Positions 2,556 through 39,725 of a DNA stretch of 44,367 nucleotides are shown here, piece after piece. The notes under the pieces are model-generated. The model saw only the letters and a program-made list of their open reading frames with translations. It had not been told where the DNA came from and ran no database searches. The first letter of the stretch is position 1; the number at the start of each line of letters is the position of its first letter. This DNA is from Feifaniaceae bacterium. GTDB taxonomy: Bacteria; Bacillota; Clostridia; Christensenellales; CAG-138. The stretch is taken from contig DATMXR010000112.1 in the NCBI GenBank assembly GCA_035561315.1, positions 1 through 44,367 of the forward strand. Direction: 5' to 3'. The position numbers and the translations under genes were made by a program.

Positions 2556-2564
2556 AGGCCTCCT

Positions 2565-4154: not shown

Positions 4155-4344
4155 AATACACCCCTCCGTGTATTCATTATTAGAAGCAATTTTAAGTATA
4201 TTGCCTGCCTTTTGAGAATGCAATCATCGCCCTCGATGCTCTTGATTAGTATATCCGAAAAAAATCCCCGGAACAGCAAAAAGCAAAGGCCATTGTGACG
4301 GCCTTCGGACAGATGGGAGTATGTGACGCGGAACATAACAATCG

Positions 4345-4396: not shown

Positions 4397-5443
4397 TTAG
4401 TTTTTCCCATATGGATACAGCAGCTTTACCACGTTTTCATCGTTGATGTTGTCCAACGTCACGAATGTTGTCTTCGTTTCAATATTCGCTTCCACCGGCT
4501 CGTTCTTGAGCGCCTTATAGGCCGCCTCAACAGCCTGATAGGCCATCATGAACGGATCCTGGGAAACAAAGCCCTGCATCACGCCGTCGTTCAGATAGGA
4601 GATGTTCTGCTCGCACGCGTCAAACCCGACAAATACCAGCTTGCCCTTCATGTTCTTCTCGATAATGGCGGTGCCCGCGCCTATGGAGGTAATGTCATTG
4701 TTTGCGAAGATGCCGGCCAGGTCCGGGTTGGCCGTCATGGAGTCCGTCGCAATGGCGATGGCCCTGTTCAGATCGCCCTGCGCGTACTGTATGGAAATGA
4801 TCTCCACTTCCGGGTACAGCTCGGCCATTTTATCTGCAAAGCCGTTGCACCGGTTGACGGACCCCTGTGCGGCGTCGCTCGTGCCGATCACAACAATCTT
4901 GCCTTTTCCGCCGAGCAGTTCGCCCATCTTTTCGGCGGCCGCGCCGCCCGCGACGTAATTATCCGTCGCCACATGGGACACCGCGACATCGCTCGCCAGT
5001 ATGGAGTTGTAGGTCACGATCTTAACGCCTTTGGCCGCGGCGCTTTCCACCACCGGCACCATGCCCTCCGTATCCAGGGCCGCGATGCAGATGGCGTCGG
5101 CGCCTTTATTGACGGCGTTTTCAACCAAATTCACCTGCTGGTCGATCGAAGCCTCCGTATCGCACCCTTCATAAGTCAATTTGATTCCCAGATCCTGTCC
5201 GGCCGTTTCGGCGCCAAGCTGCACCGTTTTCCAAAAGTCGCCCGCGTAAGCCTTGGAAATAAAGGCAACATAAAGGTCCTCGTCCGTCTTGGCCGGTTCC
5301 GCCGCCTCTTCGGGCGCTTCCGTCTGCGCAGGCTGCGCGCTCGCTTCCGGCTGGGGCTGGGGCTGGCTTGCCTGTTCCGGCGCGCAGGCAAAGGCGCTCA
5401 GCACCATAGCGATAACCAACAGCATCAATACAGTTTTTTTCAT
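4397..5443 (-). CDS. Sugar ABC transporter substrate-binding lipoprotein (RbsB/periplasmic-binding-protein type I family)
   Basis: The lipoprotein signal is MKKTVLMLLVIAMVLSAFAC, followed by a Pro/Gln/Glu/Ala-rich linker and then a PBP-I fold sequence (VAFISKAYAGDFW..., VTYNS..., FVGFDA...). The start at 5443 is preceded by AGGAGGAAGT. Confidence 0.9.
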   Translation of the reverse strand: MKKTVLMLLVIAMVLSAFACAPEQASQPQPQPEASAQPAQTEAPEEAAEPAKTDEDLYVAFISKAYAGDFWKTVQLGAETAGQDLGIKLTYEGCDTEASIDQQVNLVENAVNKGADAICIAALDTEGMVPVVESAAAKGVKIVTYNSILASDVAVSHVATDNYVAGGAAAEKMGELLGGKGKIVVIGTSDAAQGSVNRCNGFADKMAELYPEVEIISIQYAQGDLNRAIAIATDSMTANPDLAGIFANNDITSIGAGTAIIEKNMKGKLVFVGFDACEQNISYLNDGVMQGFVSQDPFMMAYQAVEAAYKALKNEPVEANIETKTTFVTLDNINDENVVKLLYPYGKN

Positions 5444-5497
5444 ACTTCCTCCTGATAAGTTAATTGACTCCTCTCGCCTGAAGCAGTGCATGATAGG

Positions 5498-6472
5498 CTA
5501 TTTCCTGTTTTTCATGTTCCGTACCCTGTCAAGGTACACCGCAAAAACAAGCACAACGCCCGTCGCGACCTGCTGCCAGTTTTGAGAAACATTTAATAAA
5601 TTCAAACCGTTCATCAGCACGCCCATAACAAATGCGCCCAATACCGTTCCGCTGATGGAACCGTGCCCGCCCGACATGGAGGCGCCGCCAATTACCGCGG
5701 CCGCCACCGCGCTGCCCTCGTAGCCCACGCCGATCGTCGGCTGGCCGGAATTTACCCTGGACGCGAATATGATGCCCGCGATAGACGCCATTGTCGCGCT
5801 TACCATGTAGGCAAAGACCCTGACCTTGACAATATTGACCCCCGAAAGCCGCGCGGACTCCTCGTTGCTGCCCACCGCGTAGATATGCCGCCCGATCACA
5901 AGCTTTCGCAATATGAATGAAGCGACCAGCGCGACCGCTATCATATAGATGATCGGCATGGGCATGAAATCGAACAGATAGGTTTGCGCAATCGCCTTAA
6001 AGGCGGGCGTGTTGTTTACAAATATGGATTTCGCGTCCGTAATGACCATAGCAAGCCCGCGCAAATACATCTGCGCCGCAAGCGTGGTGATAAAAGGCGG
6101 GATTTTGCCGCGCGCAACGATGATCCCGTTGGTGAACCCCACCAGGCAGCCCAGCGCGAGCCCCGCCAGCAGCGCCAGCCACAGCGGGTACCCGGCCTTG
6201 AGTACCAGCGTTACGATACAGCCGGACAGGGCGACCGTTGAGCCCAGCGACAGATCGATGGCGCCCGCTATGATATCGAACGTCATGCCGAAAGCGCATA
6301 TCGTCGTGATCGACGCCTGCATGGCGATGGTCATAATATTGTCCACCGTCAGGAACCAGGGGCTTGCGATCGAAAACAGCGTGCACATTCCCAGAAGCAC
6401 AAAAGCGACCACAATTTTTTGCAGCTGCTCGTTATTCAGGTTGTTTTTGTTGAGTACTTTGATATTCGCCAT
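5498..6472 (-). CDS. Sugar ABC transporter permease (RbsC/BPD_transp_2 family)
   Basis: The protein is polytopic and hydrophobic, with typical RbsC-like segments (IDLSLGSTVAL..., GGASMSGGHGSISGTVLGA). The ATG at 6472 (MANIKV...) has an upstream GAAGGAG. The alternative ATG at 6499 has no RBS. Confidence 0.88.
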   Translation of the reverse strand: MANIKVLNKNNLNNEQLQKIVVAFVLLGMCTLFSIASPWFLTVDNIMTIAMQASITTICAFGMTFDIIAGAIDLSLGSTVALSGCIVTLVLKAGYPLWLALLAGLALGCLVGFTNGIIVARGKIPPFITTLAAQMYLRGLAMVITDAKSIFVNNTPAFKAIAQTYLFDFMPMPIIYMIAVALVASFILRKLVIGRHIYAVGSNEESARLSGVNIVKVRVFAYMVSATMASIAGIIFASRVNSGQPTIGVGYEGSAVAAAVIGGASMSGGHGSISGTVLGAFVMGVLMNGLNLLNVSQNWQQVATGVVLVFAVYLDRVRNMKNRK

Positions 6473-6492
6473 GATGCCTTGCGCTCCTTCAA

Positions 6493-7986
6493 CTAACATG
6501 TAGTGGATGCAAACTGCAGAATTCTTTCCTGCGTTGCTTCCTTGTTATTCAACTCGCCGGTTATTTTCCCTTCGCACATCACCACGATACGGTCGCTCAT
6601 GCCCAGTATTTCAGGCATCTCCGAGGAGATCATGATGATGCCCAGCCCTCGTGCCGCCAGTTTGTTCATCAGGGAATACACCTCGAACTTTGCACCGACG
6701 TCGATGCCGCGCGTAGGCTCGTCGAATATGATCAGCTTCGATTCTTTACAGAGCCACCGGCCGATCAATACCTTTTGCTGGTTGCCCCCGCTCAGGTTGG
6801 AAACGATCTGCGTGGCGGAGGGCGTCTTTATGTGCAGCTCCTCGATCCTGGCCGCAACCTCCTCTGCGCACAGCCTGTCGTTTATGATTCCATATTTGGA
6901 ATATCCGGCGAGATTGGTTACCGTAATGTTGGTATCCACCTGGAGGTCCAGAAACAGCCCGTCATACTTCCTGTCTTCGGTCAGATATGCGATGCCGTGC
7001 TTGATCGCGTCGGCAATGCTGTGTATTTTTACCTCTTGCCCTTCCATATAAAAGCTGCCGGATTCCGCCGGTTCCGCTCCGAATATGGCCCTTGCAAGCT
7101 CCGTGCGGCCCGCGCCCATCAACCCGGCCAATCCCAGTATCTCGCCCGCGCGCACCTGAATCGACGCATCCTTGACCGCATTGCCGCGGCGGACGTGCTT
7201 CGCTTCAAACACCACGTCTCCGATATCGGAGTGGCGCGGCGGAAATTTATCCACCAGCGGGCGGCCGACCATCATGCAGATCAGCTCGTCCATGCTGGTA
7301 TCCTTCCAGAGCTTCGTGGCCACATAGCAGCCGTCGCGCAATACCGTCACGCGGTCGACGATATGTTCAAACTCCTCAAGCCTGTGCGAAATATAAATGA
7401 TGCCCGTGCCGCGCTCGCGCAGCGTGCGGATGATCTCAAACAGCCGGGTCACTTCGCTGTCCGTCAGCGCCGAGGTGGGCTCATCCAGCACCAGAATATC
7501 CGATTCGACGATGAGCGCCTTCGCGATTTCCACCATCTGCTTCTCCGCGACGCTCAGTTCCGCGATCGCCCTGCGGCAGTCGATATTTACCCCCAGCTCA
7601 TCCAGTTTGCTCTGGGCCATGGTTCTCATCGCTTCGTCGTCGATCAGGAGATTGCGGAGCTTTTTTGGCTCGCGGGTAATATAGATGTTTTCCGCCACGC
7701 TCAGGTCGGGCAGAAGATTGAATTCCTGGTGGATAATGCTGATGCCGATATCCTGCGCTTCCCTGGGGTTGGCCGCGTTTAAAGGCTGCCCTTTGTATAT
7801 CATTTCGCCCTCGTCCGCGCGGTGTATGCCGGTCAGTATTTTTACAAGGGTGGATTTTCCGGCGCCGTTTTCCCCGATCAGCGCGTGGACCTCCCCTCTT
7901 CTCAGCTCAAAATCCACACCGTCCAACGCCTTTACGCCCGGAAAATGTTTTTTTATGCCCTTCATTTCCAAAAGAATTTCTGTCAT
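6493..7986 (-). CDS. Sugar ABC transporter ATP-binding protein, tandem NBD (RbsA/MglA-like, CUT2)
   Basis: NBD1 has [35 protein letters not shown] and ISHR. NBD2 has [19 protein letters not shown] and [11 protein letters not shown]. The start at 7986 ([10 protein letters not shown]) is preceded by GGAGAG. Confidence 0.92.
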
Positions 7987-8051
7987 GTTTATCTCTCCAA
8001 CGTGCGGAATAAGGATGCGTATCAATTTGCATGGAAAAGCGTCATACCCAT

Positions 8052-8134: not shown

Positions 8135-9037
8135 CTATTTCACGACCTTAACGCGGGAGCCGGTAGAACACCGCAGCGTTTCGGCCGCGCGTTCCGCCGC
8201 CGCCATATCCGGCGGCTCCGTGCCTGCGTATGCGTAAGCAAGGCCCATATGCCCGTATTTTGCGGCCCCCAGCCGGTGAAACGGCAGCAGCTCGACCCGC
8301 GGTATCCCCAACCGGCAGGCGAGCGCCCCGCAGGCCTCGTAATGCCGCTCGTCCATATTGTATCCGGGTATCAGCGGAAGCCTGAGTACCACGTTTGCGT
8401 GGGCCGCGGCGTATGCGAGATTTTTCCGTATCAGCGTGCCGCTTACACCCGTCCCCGATACGTGCGCATCCGGGTCCAGATGTTTGATATCGAACAGCAC
8501 TTCATCGCACAGCGCAAGGAGTTCCCGGAACGTCTCCTCTTTGCAGTATCCGCAGGTTTCCAGCGCGACGCCGACCCCCTGCTTTTTTAAGAGCGCGGCC
8601 AGCGCATGCAGGAATTCCGGCTGCATGGTGGCTTCGCCGCCGGAAAACGTCGCTCCGCCGCCGGATTCTTCATAATAGCTGCGGTCGCGCAGTATGCTGT
8701 CCGCCACCTGCCCGGCGGTCGCCCGGTACCCGGATAGATGCAGCGCCCCGGAAGGGCACGCGCCTAAGCAACTGCCGCAGCCTTTACAGCGGGATCTGTC
8801 GAGCTTCAGCGCTTCGTCAAACCGGATGGCATTGTGCGGGCAGACGGCAACGCAGCTTTTGCAGCCCAGGCATTTGGAGCCGTCGTACAGAAGCACAGGC
8901 GATGCGGGCTGCGTTTCAGGATTGCTGCACCACCGGCACCGCAGCGGGCAGCCCTGAAAAAAGACCGTCGTCCGTATTCCGCTTCCGTCATGCAGGCAGA
9001 AGCGCTGTATATTGGTGATTATTCCGGTTGGTTCCAT
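8135..9037 (-). CDS. Glycyl-radical enzyme activating protein (radical SAM, with two auxiliary ferredoxin-type clusters)
   Basis: The radical-SAM CX3CX2C motif is CPLRCRWCSNPE. Two further cluster motifs are CLGCKSCVAVCP and CKGCGSCLGACP. The gene starts immediately after the GRE stop (9040). Confidence 0.92.
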   Translation of the reverse strand: MEPTGIITNIQRFCLHDGSGIRTTVFFQGCPLRCRWCSNPETQPASPVLLYDGSKCLGCKSCVAVCPHNAIRFDEALKLDRSRCKGCGSCLGACPSGALHLSGYRATAGQVADSILRDRSYYEESGGGATFSGGEATMQPEFLHALAALLKKQGVGVALETCGYCKEETFRELLALCDEVLFDIKHLDPDAHVSGTGVSGTLIRKNLAYAAAHANVVLRLPLIPGYNMDERHYEACGALACRLGIPRVELLPFHRLGAAKYGHMGLAYAYAGTEPPDMAAAERAAETLRCSTGSRVKVVK

Positions 9038-9039
9038 GC

Positions 9040-11421
9040 TTATCCTCTTGAATCGTGTTCCGTGCGCGCAATGATGTCGTTCTGCAGCAGCGGATCGATG
9101 GTTGTAAACAGCACGCTGAATCCCGCGACCCGCACCGTAAGCATGGGGTAATTTTCAGGATGTTTCTGCGCGTCCCGAAGCGTGGCGGAATCCACCACGT
9201 TAAACTGGATATGCTGGCCTTTGTTCAGAAAATACGTCCGAATCACGGTGGCCGTTTTTGAGAAATTGTCCCCTTCAAACAGATTGGGATTGAGCTTGAC
9301 ATTTAAAAGCGTGCTGCCCCTCGCCTTATACGGGTCCAGCCCGGTCACGGAGTTGAGCAGCGCCGTCAGCCCTTCGCGGTCGCTCCCATGGCTGCAGGAA
9401 ACGCCGCCGTCGGCAAGCAAGGCAAATTTATGCCTGCCGTCCGGTGTGGCGGCTGTTTTCCCGGCGAACAGCACATGCGACGCAATGCTGTACAGCGCGA
9501 AATTGTAACCCCCTCCGCGCGGCGAGCGGTATTTTTGCACCGTTTTTTCAATATGGTCCACTATTCTTTGTCCGATCTCATCCACCCGGGCGTCGTCCAT
9601 GCCATACTTGGGAAGGCGGAGCATCGTCTGCCGGACATCCTCGCGCCCTTCAAAATCCTGCCGAAGGGCAGTCTTCATTTGATCCCATGTCATCGAATGG
9701 TCGTCATACACCAGCGCCTTGATGGACAGCAGAGCGTCCGCCACATTGGCGATGCCCACCATCTGCAGCGATGTATGGTTGTATTTTGCGCCGCCCTGGA
9801 GGGAGGTCCGCCCGTTTTCCATACAGCCCTGTATAAAAATCGACTCAAACGGCGTGGGGTGCATGTGCCCGTGCAGCGCGTCGAGGATATTGTCGCAGGC
9901 CACCATATGATCTAAAAAGTAATCCACCTGCCTGAGATAGGCGGCGAAAAATTCCTCAAAATCTCCCGTCTGCTCCACCGGCCCGACGTCCAGATCATAC
10001 TGCTTTCCGGCGACGGCGTCGTATCCCCCAAACAGCGTCAGCTCGAGTATTTTCAGGATATTCAGGAACCCGCCCGTCAGCCAGGGCTCGTTGTTGCCCT
10101 GCCCCGTGGTTTCGGTGCAGCCTACGATGGCGTAATCCCTCGCCTCGTCTAGGCTGTAGCCCAATTGCAGCATATTGGGTATGAGCACCTCGTCGTTGAA
10201 CATGGCGGGCAGGCCATACCCCTGCGCCGCCACGCGCAGCGCATGCTCGAAAAAATCCGGCGGGCATCCGTAAAACCAGCGGATGGACAGGGACGGCTGC
10301 GGCAGGCCCACTTTATATGTGGTATCCAGAATCAGGTGCGAAAGCTCGTTTACCGCGCTCCTCCCGTGGATATCCTGCCCGCCCACCATCAGGTTCTGGA
10401 ACATGGGATAGCCGCCGAAGGCCACGGACATGACCTTATCGCGCACCTTGTTCAGTTCGAAGAATTTGATCCAGAGCGTTTGCAAAAGCTCTTCCGCGAA
10501 CGCTTTGGAAATGGTTCCGGAGTCGATATCCGCCCGGAAATAGGGATACATGTACTGGTCGAACCGCCCCGGCGATATGCTGTGGCCGTTCGATTCCAGA
10601 TGGATGACCAAATGAATAAACCAGAAGCTTTGAAGCGCCTGGTAAAAGCTTTGCGCGGGATATGCGGGCACCCTCCTGCAGTTTTCAGCGATCTCCCGCA
10701 GTTCCTCCCGGCGCTGCGCGTCCGCTTCCCCGTCCGCCATTTGATCCGCCAATGCGGCGAACCGCTCCGCAAACGCGACGGCGCTTTTTGCGCTAACGCT
10801 GACCGCCTGATAATAATCCAGTTTTTCCATATAGCGCGGGTCGCCGGGGTCCAACGCTTCCTGCAGGGCGTCCGCTTCCCGCATCACGGCATAAAGCCCT
10901 TTTTGCAGACATGACCTGTAATCCACAATGACATGCCCCACGCCGGAACGCAGCGCCGTGAGCGCGTAAACGAGATCCTCCGCGTACGCTCTCTGCTCTT
11001 TGGAAAACAGCCGCAGCGCCGTATCCGTCAGGCTGTTGCCTTTCCAGAATTCATAAATTTCACGGATGACGCGCTTGTTTTCCTCGCTGACATAGAACCG
11101 GTCCGCCGTGCGCTCGGAAAAGGTATCGAGCTCATCCACCACATATTTAAGATCGTATTCGGGATAGAGCTGGCACCCGCGCGGTCTGCCGGCATAACTC
11201 CCGACGACCAGCTCGTCCTCGGCGATACAGATCTGCATATGCAAAAGCACGTTTTCAAGCGCCTTTGCCTTGCGGTAGAGATTGGTCTGGCCCTGCGTAT
11301 GCCGGTAGCTTTCGGTCACCAGCACCGCCCGGTCCGTAAAAATTTCCGGCGTCGTGCCTATGGTGCGTTCGCGCATCCGCGCGACCCGGGGATAAACCCG
11401 GTCGATCGGCTTTTTTTGCAT
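9040..11421 (-). CDS. Glycyl radical enzyme, PFL-fold, 1,2-eliminase/dehydratase class, substrate unknown
   Basis: 793 aa from MQKKPIDRVYPRV.... The start at 11421 has GGGGGA 5 nt upstream, just after the dmpG-like stop. The C-terminal glycyl-radical motif is TVRVAGFSVLF. The Cys loop IVGCTETTG has a Glu two residues after the Cys. The motif ESNGHSISPGRFDQY is also present. Confidence 0.92.
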   Translation of the reverse strand: MQKKPIDRVYPRVARMRERTIGTTPEIFTDRAVLVTESYRHTQGQTNLYRKAKALENVLLHMQICIAEDELVVGSYAGRPRGCQLYPEYDLKYVVDELDTFSERTADRFYVSEENKRVIREIYEFWKGNSLTDTALRLFSKEQRAYAEDLVYALTALRSGVGHVIVDYRSCLQKGLYAVMREADALQEALDPGDPRYMEKLDYYQAVSVSAKSAVAFAERFAALADQMADGEADAQRREELREIAENCRRVPAYPAQSFYQALQSFWFIHLVIHLESNGHSISPGRFDQYMYPYFRADIDSGTISKAFAEELLQTLWIKFFELNKVRDKVMSVAFGGYPMFQNLMVGGQDIHGRSAVNELSHLILDTTYKVGLPQPSLSIRWFYGCPPDFFEHALRVAAQGYGLPAMFNDEVLIPNMLQLGYSLDEARDYAIVGCTETTGQGNNEPWLTGGFLNILKILELTLFGGYDAVAGKQYDLDVGPVEQTGDFEEFFAAYLRQVDYFLDHMVACDNILDALHGHMHPTPFESIFIQGCMENGRTSLQGGAKYNHTSLQMVGIANVADALLSIKALVYDDHSMTWDQMKTALRQDFEGREDVRQTMLRLPKYGMDDARVDEIGQRIVDHIEKTVQKYRSPRGGGYNFALYSIASHVLFAGKTAATPDGRHKFALLADGGVSCSHGSDREGLTALLNSVTGLDPYKARGSTLLNVKLNPNLFEGDNFSKTATVIRTYFLNKGQHIQFNVVDSATLRDAQKHPENYPMLTVRVAGFSVLFTTIDPLLQNDIIARTEHDSRG

Positions 11422-11434
11422 GTCCGTCCCCCGC

Positions 11435-12439
11435 TTACCGTTTTTGCTGCGCAAGCTCGTACGCCACCTCAAGGCAGATATGCTCCTGCCCTTCCGTGCA
11501 GGAACGCCTGCCCACCTCCAGGATGATGTCCCGCGGGTCCACGCCATACTTCTGCCCCGCGCGGCGCGCAAAAAGCAGAAAGCTCGAATAGCAGCCCGCA
11601 TAGCCCAGCATGATCTGGTCGCTGGCAAGCTCCATCGGCGCCGGCATCAGCGGCTTCAAATAGCGGTCGCCGACATCCATGGCCTTATAGAGATCCACGC
11701 CCGTATGGACGCCCCGCTTCTGCAGCGCGGCTGCAAAAGGCTCAACGGGGCAATTGCCCGCGCCCGCGCCAAATCCCTTTAAACAACAATCGATATGCGT
11801 TGCTCCCGCTTCCACGGCGGCTAGGGAATTGGCCACCGCCAGCGACAGATTGTTATGGCCGTGAAAGCCTATTTCCACATCGATCGCCTTGCGCATGGCG
11901 CTGACGCGCTCAAACACCTGCTCGGGCAGCATGGCGCCGCCGCCGTCGAGCAGGTATACCACTTCCGACCCGAACGATTCGGACATCTGCGCATATTTTA
12001 CGGTGGACTCCACATCCAGCGGCGCCGCGTGCGGCAGCAGGGTGCGGGGCTGAAAGCCCATTTCCTTCGCCATTTGGATATGCTGCTTCGCGATATCGCA
12101 CTCCGTGATCTGCGTGGCGAGCCGCGCGATGGACACCCCGTAATCGCGCGCCATCCGCAGCTCGTGCCTTGTGCCGATACCGGGGATGATCACGATGCAC
12201 AGCTCGGTATTATGAACGGCCGCCGATACCTTTTGTATATACTCCAGGTCGCTGGAGGCGGCCATTCCATACTGCAGGGAGGAGCCCGCGAGGCCGTTCC
12301 CGTGGCCGAATTCCATAGAATCCACGCCGATCGTATCGATCTGCGCGGCAAGGTTCCCCATGGTTTCCGCGGTGAACGAATGGCTGACGGCGTGCATGCC
12401 GTCCCGCAGCGTTACATCGAGTATTTTGATCTCTTTCAT
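11435..12439 (-). CDS. dmpG: 4-hydroxy-2-oxovalerate (4-hydroxy-2-oxoacid) aldolase, DmpG/MhpE/BphI family
   Basis: Family motifs are [20 protein letters not shown] and [23 protein letters not shown]. It is 334 aa and overlaps the preceding dmpF-like gene by 4 nt. Confidence 0.9.
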
Positions 12440-13326
12440 ACCGCTTCCCCCGCGCCGCTTGCAAGCAGCCTTTCCGCAATCCGCTCCGCGACCGCGACCG
12501 CCGCGCTGGTCTCGATATCGAGGTTGCCGCTGTACTTGGGCAGATAATCCCCCGCGCCCTCTACCTCCACCATGACCGTGACGCGGTCCCCTTCAAATAT
12601 CGGCGGGATCTTCAGGCGATAACCCGGCACATATTTTTTTACCTTCTCCACGGCCTCCAGCACCGAACGGGTGACTGCGCCCTCGTCCGCATCCTTTACC
12701 GTGCAATAAATCGTATTGTTCATGATCATGGGCGGCTCGGCGGGGTTGAGCAGTATGATGGCCTTGGAGCGCCTCGCCCTCCCCACCTCGCACAGCCCGC
12801 GCGCAGTCGTCTGCGTGAATTCGTCTATGCTTTCCCGCGTGCCGATGCCCGCGCTTTTGCTCGCGATGGTCGCCACGATTTCGGCGTACGTGATCTCCGC
12901 CGCCCTGCTGATCGCGTAGACAATGGGGATTGTGGCCTGGCCGCCGCAGGTAATGAGATTGATATTGTCCGCGTCCAGATTCTGCTCCATATTCACGGTC
13001 GGGACGACATATTTCCCGACTGCGGCGGGCGTCAGGTCGATCGCCTTCTTGCCCGCGGCTTTAAGCAGCGGCGCGTGCGCCTGGTGCGCCGAAGCGAGCG
13101 TCGCGTCAAAAACGATTTTGATATCCGGCCGGGCAAGCACCGCCTGTATTCCCTCCGTGGATACGTCGAAGCCCTCTTCCCTGGCAAGCGCAATTCCCTT
13201 GGATTCCATGATGCCCGTCACCAGATCGAGCTGCATGAACCTGCTTCTCGTCCTGATCTTGTACATCAGATCCATGCCGATATTTCCCGGGCCGATGATC
13301 GCGGCCTTTATTTTCCCGTGACTCAA
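12436..13326 (-). CDS. dmpF: Acetaldehyde/aldehyde dehydrogenase (CoA-acylating), DmpF/MhpF family
   Basis: The Rossmann motif is [17 protein letters not shown]. The catalytic-Cys context is [11 protein letters not shown]. It is 296 aa. Confidence 0.9.
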
Positions 13327-13357
13327 GGCTATCGTCCTCCTTCCGCTTTTTGGCCCC

Positions 13358-13738
13358 CTAAAGCAGCAGCGCGGGCTTCATGCCGGGCTCATCGTACCAG
13401 TACCACAGCCTGCCGATGATCTCGTCCGGCCGCTCGTCCGTATCCGTTTCCTGAATCCAGGTCCGGTCGTCCTCATGCTTTTTTTCCGCATAATGCACAT
13501 GGTGGGATTCTTTTCCGTCCGTTTCGATATAGAAGGACTCCCACGGCTGCCGGAGCAGATTTTCTTTCGCGGGGACGGAATACAGCACCCACTTCACCCG
13601 CCAGAACGGGATCAGGTACCAGGTATACCCCGCGTAGTTTTTTTCATATTCTCCCGGCCCCCCAAAGTCCAGGGGCGCCAGCCCCATTTTACGGCATGCG
13701 CCGTGAATCTCTGCGACGGTTGTAAGAGGGGTTTTCAT
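13358..13738 (-). CDS. Hypothetical protein (126 aa, Trp/Tyr-rich, acidic C-terminal half), no family recognised
   Basis: The ORF was trimmed to the ATG at 13738 ([13 protein letters not shown]...), which has AGGAG 7 nt upstream, overlapping the end of the transaldolase-like gene. It is embedded co-directionally in the GRE operon. I could not recognise any motif. Confidence 0.5.
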
Positions 13739-13748
13739 AATGGCTCTC

Positions 13749-14447
13749 CTATTCCGCGATGCCTTCGAGCTTGATCTTATCCCGCATGTATTCCACATCC
13801 TCGCCCTTCACGTTGGCCCAATTCTTGGCGAACAGCGCCTCGGCCCGATGGGTGAGCACATGGCCCATCATCTTTTGCAGCAGCGGATAGCGGAGGGCGA
13901 CGGCATCCGTTCCGGCCAGGAACGCGCCGTCCACGTCCGCAATCCCCTTCATGCTCACGGCAAATATCTCGGGCGCATGTTCCATTTCCCGATAGCATTT
14001 TTTGATGCCGCTGATAATGCCGAACATATCGATGCCTTCCTCCCGCGCGCGGGAAACGAACGGGCAAATGCCATAGGCCCCGACCATTGCCGCAACCGCC
14101 GCCTGGGACACCGAAAACAGGCAGGTGGCGATGCAGTCGATTCCCTTTTTCTGCAGGCACGCGATCGCCTCAAATCCCTTTTCATCGGCGATGATCTTCG
14201 CGCATACGCGGTCGGACAGTTTCCTGAGCTCCACCGCCCTGTCCACGATGGCGTCGGCATTGGGGCCGTGTACCTGTATAAACACGGGGGTGTCGCTTAC
14301 GTCCAAAATAGCCTTGGTGATCTCCGTCAATGTCAGTTCGCCCTTATAATACTGCTCAAAGCCCTGCGGGTTTGTCAGTATGCCCGCAACGCCGAGCTCC
14401 GTGCATTTTTTGATATCCTCAATAGATCCCGCGCCGTAAATTTTCAT
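13749..14447 (-). CDS. Transaldolase / fructose-6-phosphate aldolase family protein (TalC/Fsa-like, short class)
   Basis: 232 aa. GVAGILTNPQGF resembles LAGVTTNPS. The Schiff-base Lys context VCAKIIADEKGFEAI...GIDCIATCLFS resembles VVKVPVTAEGLAAI...GIPTLGTAVYG of E. coli FsaA, recalled from memory. The N-terminal motif reads IYGAGS where Fsa/Tal have (L/V)DT(S/A). Confidence 0.82.
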   Translation of the reverse strand: MKIYGAGSIEDIKKCTELGVAGILTNPQGFEQYYKGELTLTEITKAILDVSDTPVFIQVHGPNADAIVDRAVELRKLSDRVCAKIIADEKGFEAIACLQKKGIDCIATCLFSVSQAAVAAMVGAYGICPFVSRAREEGIDMFGIISGIKKCYREMEHAPEIFAVSMKGIADVDGAFLAGTDAVALRYPLLQKMMGHVLTHRAEALFAKNWANVKGEDVEYMRDKIKLEGIAE

Positions 14448-14467
14448 AACCCATCCTCCTGTGTTTT

Positions 14468-15688
14468 TTATAGATTGCCGTCCAGTATGCCGTTTATCAT
14501 GTTGTTGGTAAGAGCCAGCGCTCCGGCCTTATCCATCCGCCTCGGGTTCTTGGGCCTAAAATACTCTTCCATAAGTTTCTGCGCGAACCCCGCCGCGTCA
14601 TCCGGGGTATACCCGAGTTCCCGCAGTGTGACCGGAAGCCCCGACAGCTTCACCAGCTCCGAAAAACAGGCGATCGTCTGCTCCGCATTCTCCGTATGGA
14701 AGCGGCCGGACCGGTTGATCGCCGGAGCAAGCGCGTCCAGCACGGGCGCGATCTGCTTTTTGTTATAGGCGAGCGTATAGGGCAGCGCCAGCGCGCAGCC
14801 GAGGCCGTGCGGCGCACCTTTTTCCGTCGTCAATATGTAGGATACGCTGTGCGCGTAGAGCCCGCCGCCCTGCGTATAGGCAAGCATGCCCATCACGGAG
14901 GCGAACGACATATAATACCTGGCTGCAAGATTATCGCCGTTTTCTATCGCGAGGGGCAAATACGTAAACACCAGCTCCACGCATTGCGCCGCCATGGCCA
15001 GGGTGAACGGATTGGTCTGCCCGCAGACGCCCTCTACGCCGTGCGTCAGGGCGTCGAGCCCTGTGGCCGCCGTGACCCTGGGGGGCATCGTAGCCGTCAG
15101 CAGCGGGTCCACCAGCGCCGCGTCGGCATACAGATGGGGGCTTGCGATATACAGCTTCTTGCCGTTGTCGCTGGCCACGATATACGGGCTGACCTCGCTC
15201 CCCGTTCCCGACGTGGTAGGCATCAATATCGTGGGCAGCGAGCCCGTGATAAGCCCGCCGTCCCGCATAAGCGCATCCGCGTCGTGCTCCGATTTAGCAA
15301 CCACGCCCGCCAGCTTGCCTACATCCATGCTGCTGCCGCCGCCCAGGCCGATTACGATGTCTATGCCCTTTTCTTTTACCAGGCGCTCCACATCCCTGAG
15401 ATTGTCCATATGCGGTTCGGGCGCAACGTCGCTGTATACAAACGCCCCGATGCCGCTTGCCGCAAGAGACTCCATAACCGTTTGATGCATGCCCAGCGAT
15501 ACGATGGTTTTGTCCGTAACGATCAGGGCGGTTGTTCCGCCCAATGCCTGCGCCGTTTTGCCCGCTTTCTGCGCCGCGCCGAAACCGAACAGCAGCCTGC
15601 CGTTCGGCTTCGTCCCCGGGAACTGTATGGTAATTTCCTGCCGCAGCGCTTCGGGCAGCGCCTCCAATGCCTGCCGTATGTTACTCAT
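14468..15688 (-). CDS. Iron-containing (group III) alcohol dehydrogenase
   Basis: 406 aa with the GLGGGSSMDVGK motif and His-containing metal-site regions (LDALTHGVEG, LYAHSVSY). It overlaps the kinase gene by 4 nt. Confidence 0.9.
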   Translation of the reverse strand: MSNIRQALEALPEALRQEITIQFPGTKPNGRLLFGFGAAQKAGKTAQALGGTTALIVTDKTIVSLGMHQTVMESLAASGIGAFVYSDVAPEPHMDNLRDVERLVKEKGIDIVIGLGGGSSMDVGKLAGVVAKSEHDADALMRDGGLITGSLPTILMPTTSGTGSEVSPYIVASDNGKKLYIASPHLYADAALVDPLLTATMPPRVTAATGLDALTHGVEGVCGQTNPFTLAMAAQCVELVFTYLPLAIENGDNLAARYYMSFASVMGMLAYTQGGGLYAHSVSYILTTEKGAPHGLGCALALPYTLAYNKKQIAPVLDALAPAINRSGRFHTENAEQTIACFSELVKLSGLPVTLRELGYTPDDAAGFAQKLMEEYFRPKNPRRMDKAGALALTNNMINGILDGNL

Positions 15689-16635
15689 GCGCCCACTTCC
15701 TTCCTGAATGCTTCAAGTTCTTCCCATGTCGGCATGCCGCCCCTGGTGCCGAATACGCGGCAGTTGTGCGCCCCGCACAGGTTGCCCACCGTAACCGCCT
15801 CCTCCATATCCGCCCCGCGGGAGAGCGCATACGCCACGCCGCCGTGGAACGCGTCCCCGGCGCCGACCGTATCCGCGACCTCCACCCGATAGGCGGGTTT
15901 ATGGCGAAGCGCCCCCGCGTCGTCGATATAATAGGCCCCGTTGCCGCCGGCCGACATGATCACAGGCTTTTTGAATTCTTCATGCATGTTCACGGCGATT
16001 TCGATATCGGTGCGCTCCGGATACAGCGTCGTCATCGCGGCGGCGTTTGGCATCAATATGTCCGCCAGGGAGCAGATCCGCTCAAACTCCTCTTTTGTGC
16101 CCACGCATTGCCTGGCGGGGTCCAGATCCAGATCGACCACGATTTTTGCATGGTTTCGTTTGGCAAGCGCGCAAAAATCGGCCACAAGCTTCAGGGGAAT
16201 CTCCCCCACTTCCACCATGGCAATGCTCCCCCGGGTCAGCGCGCCCGCAAGAAAAGCGAGCTCCCCGCCCGTCAGTGTCACAAGGCTGTTGGGAATTAAA
16301 AACCCGCAGCTTCTGCGCATTTCCTCCCCCGCATACGCCGCAAGGTTGAACGGGGAGCAATGCTCATTGCTGCGTATGATTTTGCCGCAGTCAATCCCCT
16401 CCGTTTCCAGTGAGGCGATGATCCGCTCCCCGAGTATGTCGTTCCCGAGTTTCCCGAGGTAAATAGATTTACAGCCCAGACGCGCTACCTGTGTGAGCGC
16501 GTTGGCCGCCGATCCTCCCCCCATGCATATCGTTTTTCGCGCGAGCAGTTTTTCTTTATAGCCGGGCCCGAAATCGGCGGTCTGAATTCTGAAATCCAAC
16601 GTTGCGGTGCCAAAACCAAATACACAGTTCTCCAT
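15685..16635 (-). CDS. PfkB-family carbohydrate kinase
   Basis: It has GGGSAANA near the N-terminus and the C-terminal DTVGAGDAFHGG anion-hole motif. It is the first gene of the minus-strand operon. RBS GAGGG lies upstream. Confidence 0.9.
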   Translation of the reverse strand: MENCVFGFGTATLDFRIQTADFGPGYKEKLLARKTICMGGGSAANALTQVARLGCKSIYLGKLGNDILGERIIASLETEGIDCGKIIRSNEHCSPFNLAAYAGEEMRRSCGFLIPNSLVTLTGGELAFLAGALTRGSIAMVEVGEIPLKLVADFCALAKRNHAKIVVDLDLDPARQCVGTKEEFERICSLADILMPNAAAMTTLYPERTDIEIAVNMHEEFKKPVIMSAGGNGAYYIDDAGALRHKPAYRVEVADTVGAGDAFHGGVAYALSRGADMEEAVTVGNLCGAHNCRVFGTRGGMPTWEELEAFRKEVGA

Positions 16636-16910: not shown

Positions 16911-17843
16911 TTACGCAGGCACAATTCCCAATCGTCTGCGAAGCTTTGTTTCTTCTGCATGCAACGCCCGAATCTCGGCTTTGAGGTCCTCTGTAAGAAC
17001 GGAAGGATCTTTTGCGCGGGTGCGCAGGCTGCAGGGGATGCCCTCCAAATTCAGATGATATTTGGCCGAAACGGGATAAGATCCCTTGTGCACGTTACCC
17101 GCCCAGCATATCCACTCCTGCACCTCAGCGGCCAGTTCGGGATGCTGCCTGTAATTTTCATAATACCAGCGGTATATATCGATGTGGTAATTCCCCATGA
17201 TGCCATTGTAGCCCACGTATCCATGCGGAAAGGAGTTAAACAGCGTTTCTGCGTTCGCATTGTAAAGTCCAAGGCTTGTGCCGCGGACAGCCGCGGCACG
17301 TTCCTGCTGGATGGCTGCGTTGCAGCTGACGTCCTTTAAAAACAGGATGCGCCCCGTGTCCGCAATCAGCTTGAGTTCTTCTAGTGAAAGCAGCCGCAGG
17401 AACGGATAGGGACATTCGTATAAGCCAAAATTCACGTCCGGCAGAGCTGACAAAATATGCTCCATATTTTCAAGGAAGGCGTCCTTATCCTCCTCCTTGC
17501 GTGCAAGGCGATTGGTCACCATTACCACGGCGTCAACGCCGGTTTCCGAAATTCTTCCAAGCTCTTCGATCTGATCGCCTATTTTAATGGAAGTATGGCC
17601 TGAAGCGATCACGGGGACGCGCCCTTGCGCCGCTTCCAGCACGCACCTTGCCAGGTCCGTTTTTTCCTGCTGAGACAAAAAGAACATCTCGCTTGATTGG
17701 CAAACGGCGAATATGCCGTGGGCGCCTTTTCGAATGAGCCAGTCCGTCAATGCAGCGTTCGCCTTAAAATCCAGTTTATTGTTATTATCGAATAAAGTAA
17801 TCATTGTGGGCCAAACGCCCGGTGCTAAAGTTTTCTTGTTCAT
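16911..17843 (-). CDS. Dihydrodipicolinate synthase / N-acetylneuraminate lyase family (class I pyruvate aldolase/dehydratase) protein
   Basis: 310 aa. The family layout includes a Tyr motif (LYECPYP) and a Schiff-base Lys context (ILFLKDVSCN). The usual G(S/T)TGE motif reads CQSSE. Confidence 0.82.
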   Translation of the reverse strand: MNKKTLAPGVWPTMITLFDNNNKLDFKANAALTDWLIRKGAHGIFAVCQSSEMFFLSQQEKTDLARCVLEAAQGRVPVIASGHTSIKIGDQIEELGRISETGVDAVVMVTNRLARKEEDKDAFLENMEHILSALPDVNFGLYECPYPFLRLLSLEELKLIADTGRILFLKDVSCNAAIQQERAAAVRGTSLGLYNANAETLFNSFPHGYVGYNGIMGNYHIDIYRWYYENYRQHPELAAEVQEWICWAGNVHKGSYPVSAKYHLNLEGIPCSLRTRAKDPSVLTEDLKAEIRALHAEETKLRRRLGIVPA

Positions 17844-17914
17844 AGCTGCCTCTCTGCTGCTTAAAATTGTGTATGAATGACGTCCCTTTTACGCTTGCCA
17901 AGCGGCTTGCTTCC

Positions 17915-18379
17915 CTATTGGAATTGTACCGGTACCTTTACCACTGCCTTACGCAGCTTTCGCCCTTGCGCAGCAGCCTGACAAGGGCGATGTGCGTCTT
18001 GCGGAAAAAATATGGCAAAACTTCTCCTGTCCATTATCAGCGGTGTCCCTACCCTATCGTTTTCTGCAAATATGATGTCTTTTCCGGGGATTTCAGCCTG
18101 CCAGCCGTCCAGCTTTGCGCGCGGAGCATATCCAATGATTTCACCGTCTTCCAGCGCGATCTGTATGTCGGCATATTGATGATGCGCTTCCCACTTGGTT
18201 TCCGAAAAAGGCTTCGTCGTTGTTTCCTGCACCGTGTAGTAGACCGGGGAACCGTCCACGGAATATCTGCCCGGCTCCATCGCCCCAAAATCCGTTGACA
18301 GGATCAGTTTTGCCGCCTCGGCAAAATGCTCCCCTAAGGTTGCATATCGAGAGATATTTTCAATGGTATCAAAAATCAT
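17915..18379 (-). CDS. YhcH/YjgK/YiaL (DUF386, EbgC-like cupin) family protein
   Basis: 154 aa. The segments PGRYSVDG..., EAHHQYADIQIAL, FAIFFPQDAHRP and KAVVKVPV parallel E. coli YhcH, recalled from memory. Confidence 0.8.
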   Translation of the reverse strand: MIFDTIENISRYATLGEHFAEAAKLILSTDFGAMEPGRYSVDGSPVYYTVQETTTKPFSETKWEAHHQYADIQIALEDGEIIGYAPRAKLDGWQAEIPGKDIIFAENDRVGTPLIMDRRSFAIFFPQDAHRPCQAAAQGRKLRKAVVKVPVQFQ

Positions 18380-18392
18380 AATGTACCTCGCG

Positions 18393-19682
18393 TCAGCCCA
18401 TATAGCCCATGGTCTGGGGAAGCCATGTAACCAGGGCGGGAATATATGTGATTAGGAACAAGATCGCCATCATTACCGCGCACATGGGCAGAATTTCTCT
18501 GGATATATCCTTCAGCTTACAGCCGCTGATGCTCGCCGTTATGAACAGGCACATCCCGAAGGGCGGCGTACTGAGCCCAATCATCATAACCAGAACGATG
18601 CAGACGCCGAAGTGGACCAGATCTATTCCCAGCGCCGAAACGACGGGGATCACGATCGGCAGAAAGATATACTGTATGACGCCTACGTCCAGAATCATGC
18701 CGAGAAGGGTGAACACCAGAATGATCAAAAACAGAATGAAGTATCTGTCGTTCGTCAGGGACAATATAAAATTGGCGGCCGCTACCGAGACGCCTTCCTT
18801 TGCCACCATGTAACTCATTACGCAGGATGCCGCAGTCATAATGGTAACGCGGCCGGTTTGCAGCGCGGTATCCTTCAGGCAGCCGATGATTTGCTTCCAG
18901 CTCATGCTACGGTAAACAAACACCGAAATGAGCAGGGAATACAGAGCGGCGATAGCGCCCGCTTCCGTAGGGGTCATCACGCCGGAATAAATGCCCACAA
19001 GCAATATGACCGGGGCCATCAGCGCGGGAATCGCCTTGAAGGTATGCATGCAAAACTGCTTAAAGGTATATTTCTGGCCGCGCGGATAGTTCCGCTTGAT
19101 GGACACGACCGCGGAGTAGATGCTCAGCGCACCTCCGATCAGCAGGCCCGGCACAACGCCTCCCATGAACAGCGCGCCCACAGACGCGCCCGAAAGCATG
19201 GCATATATCACCATTGGAATGCTTGGCGGTATGATGGGGCCCACCGTAGACGTTGCCGAAGTAAGCGCGCAGCTGAACGGCAAATCATATCCGTCCTCTT
19301 TCATGGCCTCAATTTCTATCATTCCGACGCCGGAAGCATCGGCAACCGCCGAACCGGACATCCCGGCGAATATGACTGAAGTCAGCACGTTTACCTGCGC
19401 CAGCGCGCCGCGCTTTCTTCCGATCAGCGCTTTGCAGAAGTCGAACAGGCGTTGGGTCACTTTCCCGGAATTCATAAAATTCGCCATCAGTACGAACATC
19501 GGCACCGCTAGAATGGTATAGTTCCCATACATGCCGTTCACAATCTTGTCGGCCACAATGCCCAAGTCCGCTCCGGTTATTGCCAAATAGACCACACCGG
19601 AAGAAATGAGGCCGAGAGAGATCGGAATATTGAATATAAACGTAAACACCAATACTGCGACGGGTATCCAGAAATTAATCAT
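18393..19682 (-). CDS. TRAP transporter large permease subunit (DctM family)
   Basis: 429 aa and polytopic, with a typical DctM sequence. It overlaps the dctQ-like gene by 8 nt. Confidence 0.92.
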   Translation of the reverse strand: MINFWIPVAVLVFTFIFNIPISLGLISSGVVYLAITGADLGIVADKIVNGMYGNYTILAVPMFVLMANFMNSGKVTQRLFDFCKALIGRKRGALAQVNVLTSVIFAGMSGSAVADASGVGMIEIEAMKEDGYDLPFSCALTSATSTVGPIIPPSIPMVIYAMLSGASVGALFMGGVVPGLLIGGALSIYSAVVSIKRNYPRGQKYTFKQFCMHTFKAIPALMAPVILLVGIYSGVMTPTEAGAIAALYSLLISVFVYRSMSWKQIIGCLKDTALQTGRVTIMTAASCVMSYMVAKEGVSVAAANFILSLTNDRYFILFLIILVFTLLGMILDVGVIQYIFLPIVIPVVSALGIDLVHFGVCIVLVMMIGLSTPPFGMCLFITASISGCKLKDISREILPMCAVMMAILFLITYIPALVTWLPQTMGYMG

Positions 19683-20214: not shown

Positions 20215-20244
20215 GACACTCTCCTATCGGGCTTTTGCAGAAGC

Positions 20245-20273
20245 CGCTGCCGCATGAGCGGCTCATACGGCAG
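20245..20273 (-). other. Near-perfect 29-bp palindrome (14-bp arms, one mismatch) between the dctP-like and dctQ-like genes; a possible intercistronic mRNA stabiliser or partial terminator
   Basis: The sequence is gctgccgcatgagc-g-gctcatacggcagc. No U-tract follows it on the minus strand, so it is not a canonical terminator. Confidence 0.4.
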
Positions 20274-20296
20274 CAGTTCTATTGTTTCGGGTGGGT

Positions 20297-21382: not shown

Positions 21383-21427
21383 TTGCTTTTCCTCCTGTAT
21401 GTTTTTATGGAACTTTCGCCATTTGCT

Positions 21428-22585: not shown

Positions 22586-22646
22586 CGGAAATAAGATAAT
22601 AGACTTGCACTTTTGTAGCCGCAATCTATGCATTGGAGATCGTTTC

Positions 22647-23864: not shown

Positions 23865-23877
23865 AGGGGGGGATTCT

Positions 23878-39720: not shown

Positions 39721-39725
39721 AGGCC

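Follow-up and report, generated by a model that had tools for sequence, protein, structure and literature searches.

The glycyl-radical enzyme (GRE) operon described here lies on the minus strand, at positions 8135–16635, of a 44,367-nucleotide contig from a Feifaniaceae bacterium (Clostridia; assembly GCA_035561315.1, contig DATMXR010000112.1), the whole of which is referred to below as the window. We show that its GRE belongs to a clade (clade A) whose members are encoded, from one phylum to another, together with their activase and with the aldehyde dehydrogenase–aldolase pair DmpF and DmpG. The function of clade A appears to be unassigned both in the searchable literature and in a June 2026 review of GREs (PMC13450708); the chemistry of GREs of the Cys-x-Glu (CXE) type is known, and it is the substrate class and the partners that appear to be new. 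We tentatively suggest, as the most plausible of the readings considered, that a hydroxy-carboxylate is imported and undergoes radical 1,2-elimination by the enzyme, and that the resulting 4-hydroxy-2-oxoacid is converted by DmpG and DmpF into pyruvate and an acyl-CoA.

GREs give anaerobes reactions that they could not otherwise perform, several of which matter in gut chemistry (trimethylamine, H2S, hydroxyproline), and whole clades of the family are still without a function (PMC13450708). Clade A is widespread, being present in gut and rumen Clostridia, a human-gut Desulfovibrio isolate, Syntrophobacter, Nitrospirota and Victivallales, and its association with DmpFG is invariant and without precedent: no GRE linked to DmpFG was found in the 2026 review or in the searchable literature, where queries for a GRE with a transaldolase, DmpG, 4-hydroxy-2-oxovalerate aldolase, a sugar acid or the four-gene module found nothing relevant. 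The operon of clade A probably opens a new anaerobic route for the breakdown of hydroxy-acids or sugar acids, and the partnership offers a coupled read-out (pyruvate and acyl-CoA/NADH) for substrate screening.

DmpF, DmpG, the GRE and its activase form a conserved core

The operon comprises eight co-directional genes, transcribed in the order PfkB-family kinase, iron-containing alcohol dehydrogenase (Fe-ADH), a protein of the transaldolase/fructose-6-phosphate aldolase (TAL/FSA) family, an orphan protein of 126 aa, DmpF, DmpG, GRE and activase; the map of open reading frames (ORFs) and scans with Pfam and NCBIfam agree in this with a preliminary description of the sequence. The eight genes had there been taken for a single pathway; we find instead two separable modules, namely module B (DmpF–DmpG–GRE–activase) and module A (the kinase, Fe-ADH and TAL-like genes, often with a gene of the dihydrodipicolinate synthase, DHDPS, family), the kinase/TAL/ADH set occurring mostly without a GRE.

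Neighbourhoods were inspected for GRE homologues at 50–68% identity, and species-representative genomes were additionally scanned for clade-specific DNA motifs, the matches being analysed by tblastn; the clade-specific motifs replaced a GRE-only locus scan that had matched enzymes ~40% identical and like propanediol dehydratase (PD) through one peptide common to all GREs. Many of the related loci were available as 8-kb blocks, in which a missing gene is uninformative. Module B is colinear in every locus with a readable flank, that is, in ~16 loci from at least four phyla or groups (Bacillota, Desulfobacterota, Nitrospirota and Victivallales), and the activase adjoins the GRE in all related loci. 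The list comprises the window, Ca. Limiplasma with a relative (L081, L082), a member of the Desulfitobacteriaceae (L084), rumen or gut Clostridia (L087, L091, L106, L109, L116), a Nitrospiraceae metagenome-assembled genome (MAG; L083), Desulfovibrio sp. 3_1_syn3 (L085), a member of the Desulfocapsaceae (L086), Syntrophobacter (L101), a further Desulfovibrio (L107), a member of the Victivallales (L112) and L149. In L085 dmpGF is encoded on the strand opposite to the GRE, and one gene call (P0082) fuses an HMGL-like domain to a PFL-like domain. Of the wider neighbourhood, then, the DmpFG–GRE–activase context is conserved, whereas the kinase, TAL-like and Fe-ADH genes are not constant.

Six loci carry module B only. 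Five of them (L083, L084, L085, L086 and L149) have a tripartite ATP-independent periplasmic (TRAP) or major facilitator superfamily (MFS) transporter, and in the sixth (L101) only a regulator was seen; regulators at loci of this type are GntR-FCD (L083, L101, L107), DcuS-like or sigma-54 dependent. Transporters and regulators of these kinds are typical of organic-acid and sugar-acid clusters. Since the GRE is the only other enzyme in the module-B-only loci, the simplest order of events would be importer, GRE, DmpG and DmpF. Desulfovibrio sp. 3_1_syn3 carries such a minimal module B and appears to be a cultured isolate. In its locus the MFS–GRE–activase genes are directly preceded (L085 4315–8103) by those of a GMC flavoprotein–cytochrome c dehydrogenase with three subunits, similar in type to gluconate-2-dehydrogenase, and this complex may generate a periplasmic sugar acid.

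A CXE-type GRE with an altered active site

The GRE (9040–11421, minus strand; 793 aa from MQKKP) has the PFL-like domain (PF02901, E 6.5e-215) and the glycine-radical domain (PF01228, E 7.5e-29) of the superfamily, with RVAGFS aligned to RVAGYS of glycerol dehydratase (GD). No characterised enzyme is closely related to it. TIGR01774, a broad subfamily model, is the only NCBIfam GRE model to exceed its cut-off, and the equivalog models for HypD (583 bits, cut-off 1100), CutC (504, cut-off 1050), HpfG and HpsG (565 and 547, cut-off 1000), IAD (417, cut-off 1100), HPAD (319, cut-off 1150) and PFL (168, cut-off 994) all score below theirs. The best relatives in the PDB are GD of C. butyricum (1r8w, 686 bits) and PD of R. 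inulinivorans (5i2a, 657 bits), followed by an unnamed 'glycyl radical protein' (9rco, 590 bits) and, below GD and PD, by the PflD/YbiW structures (8id0, 8yjo and 8id7, ~510 bits). Identity is 41.2% to GD, 41.4% to PD and 38.9% to 9rco, compared with 58% between GD and PD.

The core catalytic residues are those of the dehydratases. Cys435-Thr-Glu437 aligns with Cys433-Val-Glu435 of GD, a single Cys-x-Glu and not the Cys-Cys of PFL; His163 and Ser281 correspond to His164 and Ser282 of GD and are invariant in clade A; Tyr644 is conserved (Tyr640 in GD). The Cys-x-Glu motif defines the GRE eliminases and isomerases, and in the dehydration mechanism the thiyl radical takes a hydrogen, the Glu deprotonates the carbinol hydroxyl and His164 protonates the leaving hydroxyl (PMC13450708). 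Considering this mechanism and the retention of Cys, Glu, His and Ser, a 1,2-elimination or a related isomerisation is expected of the window enzyme. The activase (8135–9037, minus strand; 300 aa), a radical SAM protein with Radical_SAM and Fer4 domains (TIGR02494, 308 bits, cut-off 174), carries a CPLRCRWC motif and two ferredoxin-like cluster motifs. Fold, glycine-radical motif, these catalytic residues and an activase with two additional Fe-S motifs are all shared with GD and PD.

Elsewhere the active site differs from that of GD and PD. In an alignment of the window GRE with 119 other full-length homologues and three PDB sequences, clade A (P0002–P0083, at least 48% identity) is marked by the signature EPWLTGGF, in which the G-W-H-D-[SA]-A-F of GD, PD and 9rco has become P-W-L-T-G-G-F. 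The W-L-T triplet is present in the window GRE and in 80 of the 82 clade members and is W-L-P in the other two (Leu448 is invariant; Thr449 is found in 80/82), so the substrate-binding Asp of W-H-D (Asp447 in GD) is replaced. Likewise C-V-E-P-Q has become mostly C-T-E-T-T, Y-P-[SV]-S-x-N has become Y-[ST]-I-[AS]-x-[HN] and N-Y-Y-Y-N-G-V-G-H has become T-A-L-R-S-G-V-G-H, thereby altering both the Cys-loop and beta-strand residues. Clade A also has basic residues that set it apart from GD and PD, namely Arg or Lys at position 158 (72/82 members) and Lys699 (75/82). In the C-S lyases a sulfonate-binding Arg sits four residues before the equivalent of the dehydratase His (PMC13450708); by analogy, Arg158 of the window GRE could bind an anionic group. 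Positions 438, 439, 447, 646 and 649 change together in one subclade that has Gly158, which suggests that these positions and 158 form one site. The partners differ as well, being microcompartment or 1,3-propanediol genes for GD and PD, and DmpFG with acid-type transporters for clade A.

A sister group of GREs (P0084–P0119, 43–48% identity) lacks the clade A motifs and has instead G-Y-Y-P-[AG]-G-F and L-Q-S-I-S-A-H-A; in the one locus of this group that was examined (L088, P0111) a TRAP transporter lies beside CoA-transferase, MaoC, acyl-CoA dehydrogenase, short-chain dehydrogenase/reductase and GFO genes, with no DmpFG. This group, too, appears to be uncharacterised.

DmpG and DmpF retain their catalytic residues

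DmpG (11435–12439, minus strand), a class II, metal-dependent 4-hydroxy-2-oxoacid aldolase, and DmpF (12436–13326, minus strand), a CoA-acylating aldehyde dehydrogenase, both exceed the cut-offs of their equivalog models (TIGR03217, 413 bits against 286, and TIGR03215, 422 bits against 282). Arg17, Asp18, His21, His200, His202 and Tyr291, the catalytic and metal-binding residues of the aldolase chain of 1nvm (chain A), are all identical in the window DmpG, and the PF07836 communication domain is present. The best PDB matches of DmpF are 7z3s (353 bits) and 1nvm chain B (280 bits), and the segment with the catalytic Cys is conserved relative to 7z3s. DmpFG and BphIJ complexes channel the aldehyde internally from aldolase to dehydrogenase. 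The window pair thus resembles DmpFG, BphIJ and HsaFG of the meta-cleavage pathways in equivalog scores, catalytic residues, communication domain and the order dmpF–dmpG with a 4-nt overlap; it differs from them in its strictly anaerobic context, with no ring-cleavage or hydratase genes. In meta-cleavage the 4-hydroxy-2-oxoacid arises by hydration of 2-oxopent-4-enoate, whereas here its source would be the radical enzyme.

A proposed route from a hydroxy-carboxylate to pyruvate and acyl-CoA

Under our proposal the activase would install the glycyl radical on the GRE, the Cys435 thiyl radical would abstract a carbinol hydrogen, Glu437 would deprotonate that hydroxyl and His163 would protonate the neighbouring hydroxyl as it leaves. 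Given eliminase chemistry and a 4-hydroxy-2-oxoacid (2-keto-3-deoxy acid) as product, the substrate would be a hydroxy-carboxylate, either imported or made internally, and most simply a 2,3,4-trihydroxy (aldonate-type) acid rather than a simple diol. DmpG would then split the 4-hydroxy-2-oxoacid into pyruvate and an aldehyde, and DmpF would take the aldehyde to acyl-CoA with formation of NADH. What the analysis establishes is the identity of the genes, the conservation of catalytic residues and the division into two modules with their distribution; the sequence GRE, DmpG, DmpF, a substrate of anionic character and a connection of module A with module B are inferred. That the GRE makes a 4-hydroxy-2-oxoacid for DmpG was one of two routes put forward in the preliminary description, and it is the one favoured by comparative genomics, through the invariant DmpFG–GRE–activase core and its carboxylate-type transporters and regulators.

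The module-B-only loci resemble sugar-acid clusters, which consist of a regulator, a transporter, a dehydratase and an aldolase (for example yfaXWVU for rhamnonate and dgo for galactonate in E. coli), since their regulator is of the GntR or IclR type, their importer belongs to the MFS or TRAP class and a 'dehydratase' accompanies a pyruvate aldolase. They differ in that the GRE would replace a dehydratase of the enolase superfamily or of the IlvD type, and in that the aldolase is the class II enzyme DmpG accompanied by an acylating dehydrogenase. Several other substrates were considered for the GRE and set aside: 2-keto-3-deoxy-pentonate or -hexonate would yield acylpyruvates, dialdehydes or 2,5-dioxoacids, which are not expected substrates of DmpG; DmpG would have no use for the products of glycerate, 3,4-dihydroxybutyrate or tartrate; and 3,6-anhydrogalactonate, hydroxyproline-type rings and amino-alcohols fit neither the ecology nor the partner enzymes.

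A further parallel is provided by the sulfoquinovose transaldolase (sulfo-TAL) pathway with HpfG/HpsG, which likewise brings together a transaldolase-type cleavage, reduction of an aldehyde and a GRE acting on an anionic alcohol. A kinase and DmpFG, both encoded in the window, are absent from the sulfo-TAL pathway; the window GRE falls far short of the HpfG and HpsG models, and no Arg/Gln/Arg sulfonate triad was seen in it. 2,3-Dihydroxypropane-1-sulfonate (DHPS) is excreted by primary degraders and imported through TRAP transporters by sulfate reducers such as Desulfovibrio. By analogy, and as a matter of speculation, the distribution of genomes having module A only, module B only or both would fit cross-feeding of the DHPS type, in which polysaccharide degraders (module A) would release a small hydroxy-acid that sulfate reducers, syntrophs and Nitrospirota (module B only) import. 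It is possible, although we think it unlikely in its entirety, that clade A represents both the first GRE acting on a sugar acid or hydroxy-carboxylate and the first working with DmpG and DmpF, and with them a new anaerobic route and a cross-feeding chain; the atypical TAL-like enzyme and the orphan protein would then be new enzymes of that pathway.

Several points weigh against a hydroxy-carboxylate substrate. Radical chemistry is not needed to dehydrate a 2,3-dihydroxy acid, which enzymes of the enolase superfamily and of the IlvD/Edd type do without oxygen, and the use of a GRE is thus without an obvious rationale. The extended operon encodes two pyruvate-type aldolases, a DHDPS-like protein and DmpG, which the model does not explain, and a TAL-like protein lacking the canonical catalytic residues would leave the connection from module A to module B loose. 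The location of Arg158 and Lys699 in the active site is predicted from the alignment alone. Finally, Phe341 and Ile646 of the GRE match the residues of PD and not those of GD, at positions that we take to be contacts of the propanediol methyl group, and the pocket of DmpG, with V-I-I in place of L-L-L, is hydrophobic; taken together, these hydrophobic residues in the two enzymes suggest a small aliphatic group or aldehyde, and the aldonates that would match it (5-deoxypentonates) are not known to be abundant substrates.

Phe341 and Ile646 lend some weight to the other route of the preliminary description, or to a hybrid of it, in which the GRE dehydrates a small diol without charge (ethylene glycol, 1,2-propanediol or glycerol), a reading that we consider rather unlikely. 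An aldolase (TAL-like, DHDPS-like or DmpG) would free glycolaldehyde or lactaldehyde, the Fe-ADH would reduce it to the diol, the GRE would dehydrate the diol to an aldehyde and DmpF would convert this into acyl-CoA, a redox-balanced sequence. GD and PD are the closest solved relatives (at the 686 and 657 bits given above), Cys, Glu, His and Ser are conserved, and diol and ethanolamine pathways classically pair an Fe-ADH with an aldehyde dehydrogenase of the acylating kind. The top model of the kinase is ribokinase, and FSA-type enzymes interconvert arabinose-5-phosphate and glycolaldehyde plus glyceraldehyde 3-phosphate (G3P; PMC9947464). In the goat-rumen Clostridia MAG, two large DUF4185 proteins and an AraC regulator are encoded directly upstream of DmpF–DmpG–GRE (L087 1926–7094). 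Since the DUF4185 family presumably includes the D-arabinan-degrading GH183 enzymes, a possible hint at D-arabinose may be seen in this neighbourhood. Against all this, identity to GD and PD is only 41%, and the W-H-D motif of GD, PD and 9rco is absent from 82/82 clade members. The core is accompanied by TRAP or MFS transporters and by regulators of the acid type, in clusters that contain no Fe-ADH, kinase or TAL-like gene, and a diffusible diol needs no importer; the loss of W-H-D and this independence of the core argue against the route as first put forward. DmpG, intact and always present, would be idle unless it were the upstream aldolase, in which case one would expect DmpF to receive the aldehyde directly. 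Furthermore, no shell genes were found, as had been noted before: tblastn with reconstructed PduA and EutN sequences as queries gave a best E of 0.38 in the window, and no Pfam families of bacterial microcompartments were found in the gene tables of the related loci.

Module A and its possible connection with module B

In the window, module A is represented by the PfkB-family sugar kinase (15685–16635; PF00294, E 1e-41), the group III Fe-ADH (14468–15688; PF00465 and PF25137) and the TAL-like protein (13749–14447; 232 aa; PF00923, E 5e-23), and upstream of these by a DHDPS/NAL-family protein (16911–17843; of the pyruvate-dependent class I aldolase or dehydratase type, with weak matches to dapA, KdgD and NanA), all on the minus strand. 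The best models of the kinase are ribokinase (111 bits) and IolC (101 bits), far below the cut-offs, and the Fe-ADH scores ~200 bits with the models for sulfoacetaldehyde reductase, choline dehydrogenase and lactaldehyde reductase, all below the cut-offs; the latter protein is probably a reductase of a small aldehyde. The TAL-like gene adjoins a PfkB kinase gene in nearly all loci, often with Fe-ADH and DHDPS-family genes as well. A DHDPS-family gene lies inside module A in L112, L119, L120, L133, L139 and L148, and the window protein has positional counterparts in L081 and L082 to which it is 56–62% identical.

Most module A loci have no GRE. The hosts belong to the Bacteroidota, Planctomycetota, Verrucomicrobiota, spirochaetes and Clostridia (Prolixibacteraceae, Draconibacterium, Sedimentisphaeraceae, Thermoguttaceae and Ruficoccus among them), and GRE-free examples are L119 (8860–12788), L120 (8897–12526), L133, L135, L139 and L148. 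In the first two, both fully read, the module stands amid SusC/D, GH2, GH130, GH127, sulfatase and alpha-L-fucosidase genes, the setting of a polysaccharide-utilisation locus. Module A alone looks like an unannotated sugar catabolic pathway, and this GRE-free four-gene sugar module, the TAL/FSA subfamily with its rewired active site and the small protein without a solved fold relative are further leads from this work. Genes of the URO-D family (uroporphyrinogen decarboxylase/methyltransferase-like) account for 4/58 flanking ORFs from ~14 TAL loci (spirochaete and Clostridia), and at the P0201 locus such a gene separates the TAL-like gene from that of PfkB.

Four lineages have modules A and B side by side: the window, the Limiplasma-type loci (L081/L082), rumen Clostridia (L087, and L109 with L121) and Victivallales (L112). 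The two form one uninterrupted co-directional string with short gaps or overlaps in the window and also in L112, where the order is FeADH–TAL–DHDPS–PfkB–DmpF–DmpG–GRE; in L081 and L082 the gene set is unchanged, but the operon includes a TRAP system and the regulator is of the IclR type. Recurrence of these sets in distant phyla shows that the arrangement is not a matter of chance, and the repeated, independent juxtaposition of A and B argues for a functional link, though not for a single indivisible pathway. Module A would phosphorylate and cleave a sugar imported by the ABC or TRAP systems and reduce a small aldehyde fragment, and in genomes with both modules it would most likely supply the substrate of module B or share an aldehyde intermediate with it, in which case the Fe-ADH and DmpF would make up the usual pair for reducing and oxidising an aldehyde. 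The Fe-ADH may partner DmpF in this way in aldehyde disposal; another possibility is that it produces the alcohol on which the GRE acts.

That the modules are instead functionally unrelated neighbours, with B handling an organic acid and A a sugar and only location, perhaps also a regulator, in common, we regard as unlikely. It is true that each module is common alone, that the window has two different importers and that in L087 the modules lie on opposite strands with restriction-modification genes between them; yet the adjacency is found in at least four lineages, and an unrelated pair would not readily account for the uninterrupted strings of the window and L112.

About as unlikely is a pathway akin to anhydroglycolysis, for which there is a partial precedent in E. 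coli. The preliminary description had stated that none of the characterised GRE systems on its list combines a kinase, a transaldolase and DmpFG; as to the DmpFG link this agrees with its absence from the 2026 review, but YbiW/PflD, which had been omitted, offers the combination of a GRE with an FSA-like aldolase and an ADH. GldA reduces the small product downstream of YbiW/PflD. The YbiW/PflD–FsaA/B–GldA system and the window operon thus share a CXE GRE accompanied by sugar phosphorylation, an FSA-family aldolase and an ADH for the small cleavage product. They differ in that phosphorylation is by the phosphotransferase system there and by PfkB here, that the window ADH is of the FucO/EutG type and not GldA, that the window FSA-like protein lacks the catalytic Asp and Tyr, that module A is mostly GRE-free and that DmpFG has no counterpart. 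YbiW/PflD turn 1,5-anhydroglucitol 6-phosphate (AG6P) and 1,5-anhydromannitol 6-phosphate (AM6P) into 1-deoxyfructose 6-phosphate (1-deoxy-F6P), on which aldolases then act (PMC13450708). Correspondingly, the window kinase would act on a cyclic or anhydro sugar, the GRE would be a ring-opening isomerase whose C-O cleavage yields a deoxy-ketose phosphate, the FSA-like protein would cleave this to G3P and a small carbonyl compound and the Fe-ADH would reduce the latter. Although kinase, Fe-ADH and an FSA-like protein with an intact phosphate site stand beside the GRE in the window, the conserved basic residues of the GRE could hold a phosphate instead of a carboxylate and a neutral-sugar CUT2 importer lies downstream, this pathway is unlikely considering that the kinase/TAL/ADH module is mostly without GRE and the GRE–DmpFG core mostly without kinase, TAL and ADH, that similarity to PflD/YbiW is lower than to GD and PD and that DmpFG would be left unexplained.

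The TAL-like protein and the orphan protein

Compared with the transaldolases of T. maritima (1vpx) and T. acidophilum (TacTal), the TAL-like protein keeps the Schiff-base Lys, with the Lys of CAKII aligned to that of TacTal VVKIP (Lys86), and the Arg, Ser and Lys of the phosphate site. It has Gly5/Ala6 at the position of the catalytic Asp, Gln (in FIQVHG) at that of the Tal Glu and Phe (in CPFVSR) at that of the FSA Tyr (Asp6 of both TacTal and FSA, Glu60 of Tal and Tyr131 of FSA, respectively), and all orthologues share these three substitutions. The protein scores 110 bits with TIGR00875 (cut-off 246) and belongs to a family of 175 proteins with no informative name, at least 58% identical among those listed, ~232 aa long and with a conserved C-terminal extension. 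The earlier designation as transaldolase/Fsa-like therefore stands as regards family and Schiff-base Lys and fails as regards the catalytic set of either enzyme, and since both sets are lacking neither activity can be assumed. The intact phosphate site and the adjacent kinase gene suggest a substrate that is phosphorylated or otherwise anionic. A uronate or 2-ketogluconate-6-phosphate was considered on paper, attractive in view of the lost acidic residues, and was not adopted.

The orphan protein (13358–13738, minus strand; 126 aa from MKTPL) matches nothing in Pfam or NCBIfam and no sequence in the PDB. Of 1.84 billion representative proteins searched exhaustively with HMMER, only 39 clusters proved to be related. 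From the alignment of these relatives AlphaFold2 gave a very confident model (pLDDT 97.3, pTM 0.90), for which Foldseek found no fold match in the PDB (best E = 1.1). Among the loci analysed, orthologues (47–48% identical) occur only in L081 and L082; being thus limited to the window and the Limiplasma-type loci, the protein is accessory. Tyr35 (Y35), W66, H79, P104 and W112 are invariant and E67 nearly so; among the relatives are tandemly duplicated forms and others that occur as a domain within a large protein. A 129-aa ORF after the activase in L087 was considered as a homologue and proved not to be homologous.

Organization of the operon and the surrounding locus

As previously described, 4-nt overlaps join PfkB to Fe-ADH (15685–15688) and DmpF to DmpG (12436–12439); the GRE and activase genes, said to abut directly at 9037/9040, are separated by a 2-nt spacer, and the remaining gaps within the operon are 20, 10, 31 and 13 nt. 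A promoter and terminator scan showed no terminator-like site on the minus strand between the eight genes, its counts being at or below shuffle expectation and hence informative only in showing no evident internal terminator. From the spacing, co-transcription of the eight genes is plausible, and since the DHDPS-like gene, which lies 275 nt upstream of PfkB, is part of the same conserved module in other genomes, the transcription unit probably extends upstream at least to it. Further upstream on the same strand, translations and NCBIfam identify a YhcH-family protein (17915–18379), a TRAP transporter (DctM 18393–19682, DctQ 19675–20214, DctP 20297–21382) and an AraC regulator (21428–22342), each possibly a further member. 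The membership of the genes at 17915–22342 is uncertain because their GC content at third codon positions (GC3) differs from that of the operon: GC3 is 0.52–0.61 for DHDPS, YhcH, DctQ and AraC, 0.68–0.69 for DctM and DctP, and 0.70–0.77 from the ABC transporter through PfkB. The upstream block (16911–22342) may accordingly differ in history or in expression level.

Downstream on the same strand, translations and Pfam agree with the earlier description of a CUT2-type ABC monosaccharide importer (4397–8025; ATPase 6493–8025, permease 5498–6499, binding protein 4397–5491) and a two-component system (1500–4223), comprising a histidine kinase with His_kinase and HATPase_c domains (1500–2555) and an AraC-HTH response regulator (2565–4223). 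The best PDB matches of the CUT2 binding protein are 4rxt and 4wut (~156 bits), and the 4WUT structure contains D-fucose; the ligand of 4RXT is D-arabinose. Assignment of ligands through the PDB matches of transport binding proteins was dropped altogether, the best matches (104–171 bits) having varied or unidentified ligands. After the histidine kinase follows a 492-aa ABC-ATPase-like ORF (32–1510, minus strand) with one recognisable ABC_tran domain, which may be degenerate or sensor-associated.

On the plus strand, FAD oxidoreductase, LarA-type racemase, EtfB, EtfA and FAD-linked oxidase genes (22572–28569) form a cluster of the lactate/2-hydroxyacid utilisation type, followed by a LysR regulator gene on the opposite strand. 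The glutamate mutase components MutL and MutE and methylaspartate ammonia-lyase (30372–34482, plus strand), which serve the methylaspartate route of glutamate fermentation, indicate a fermenter living strictly anaerobically. Finally, another cluster (37194–44360, minus strand), for a deoxy-sugar or polyol and lying apart from the GRE operon by ~20 kb, encodes an Ldh_2-family dehydrogenase, a RhaA-family isomerase, two Zn-dependent ADHs, a 340-aa protein and a FucI/AraA-like isomerase.

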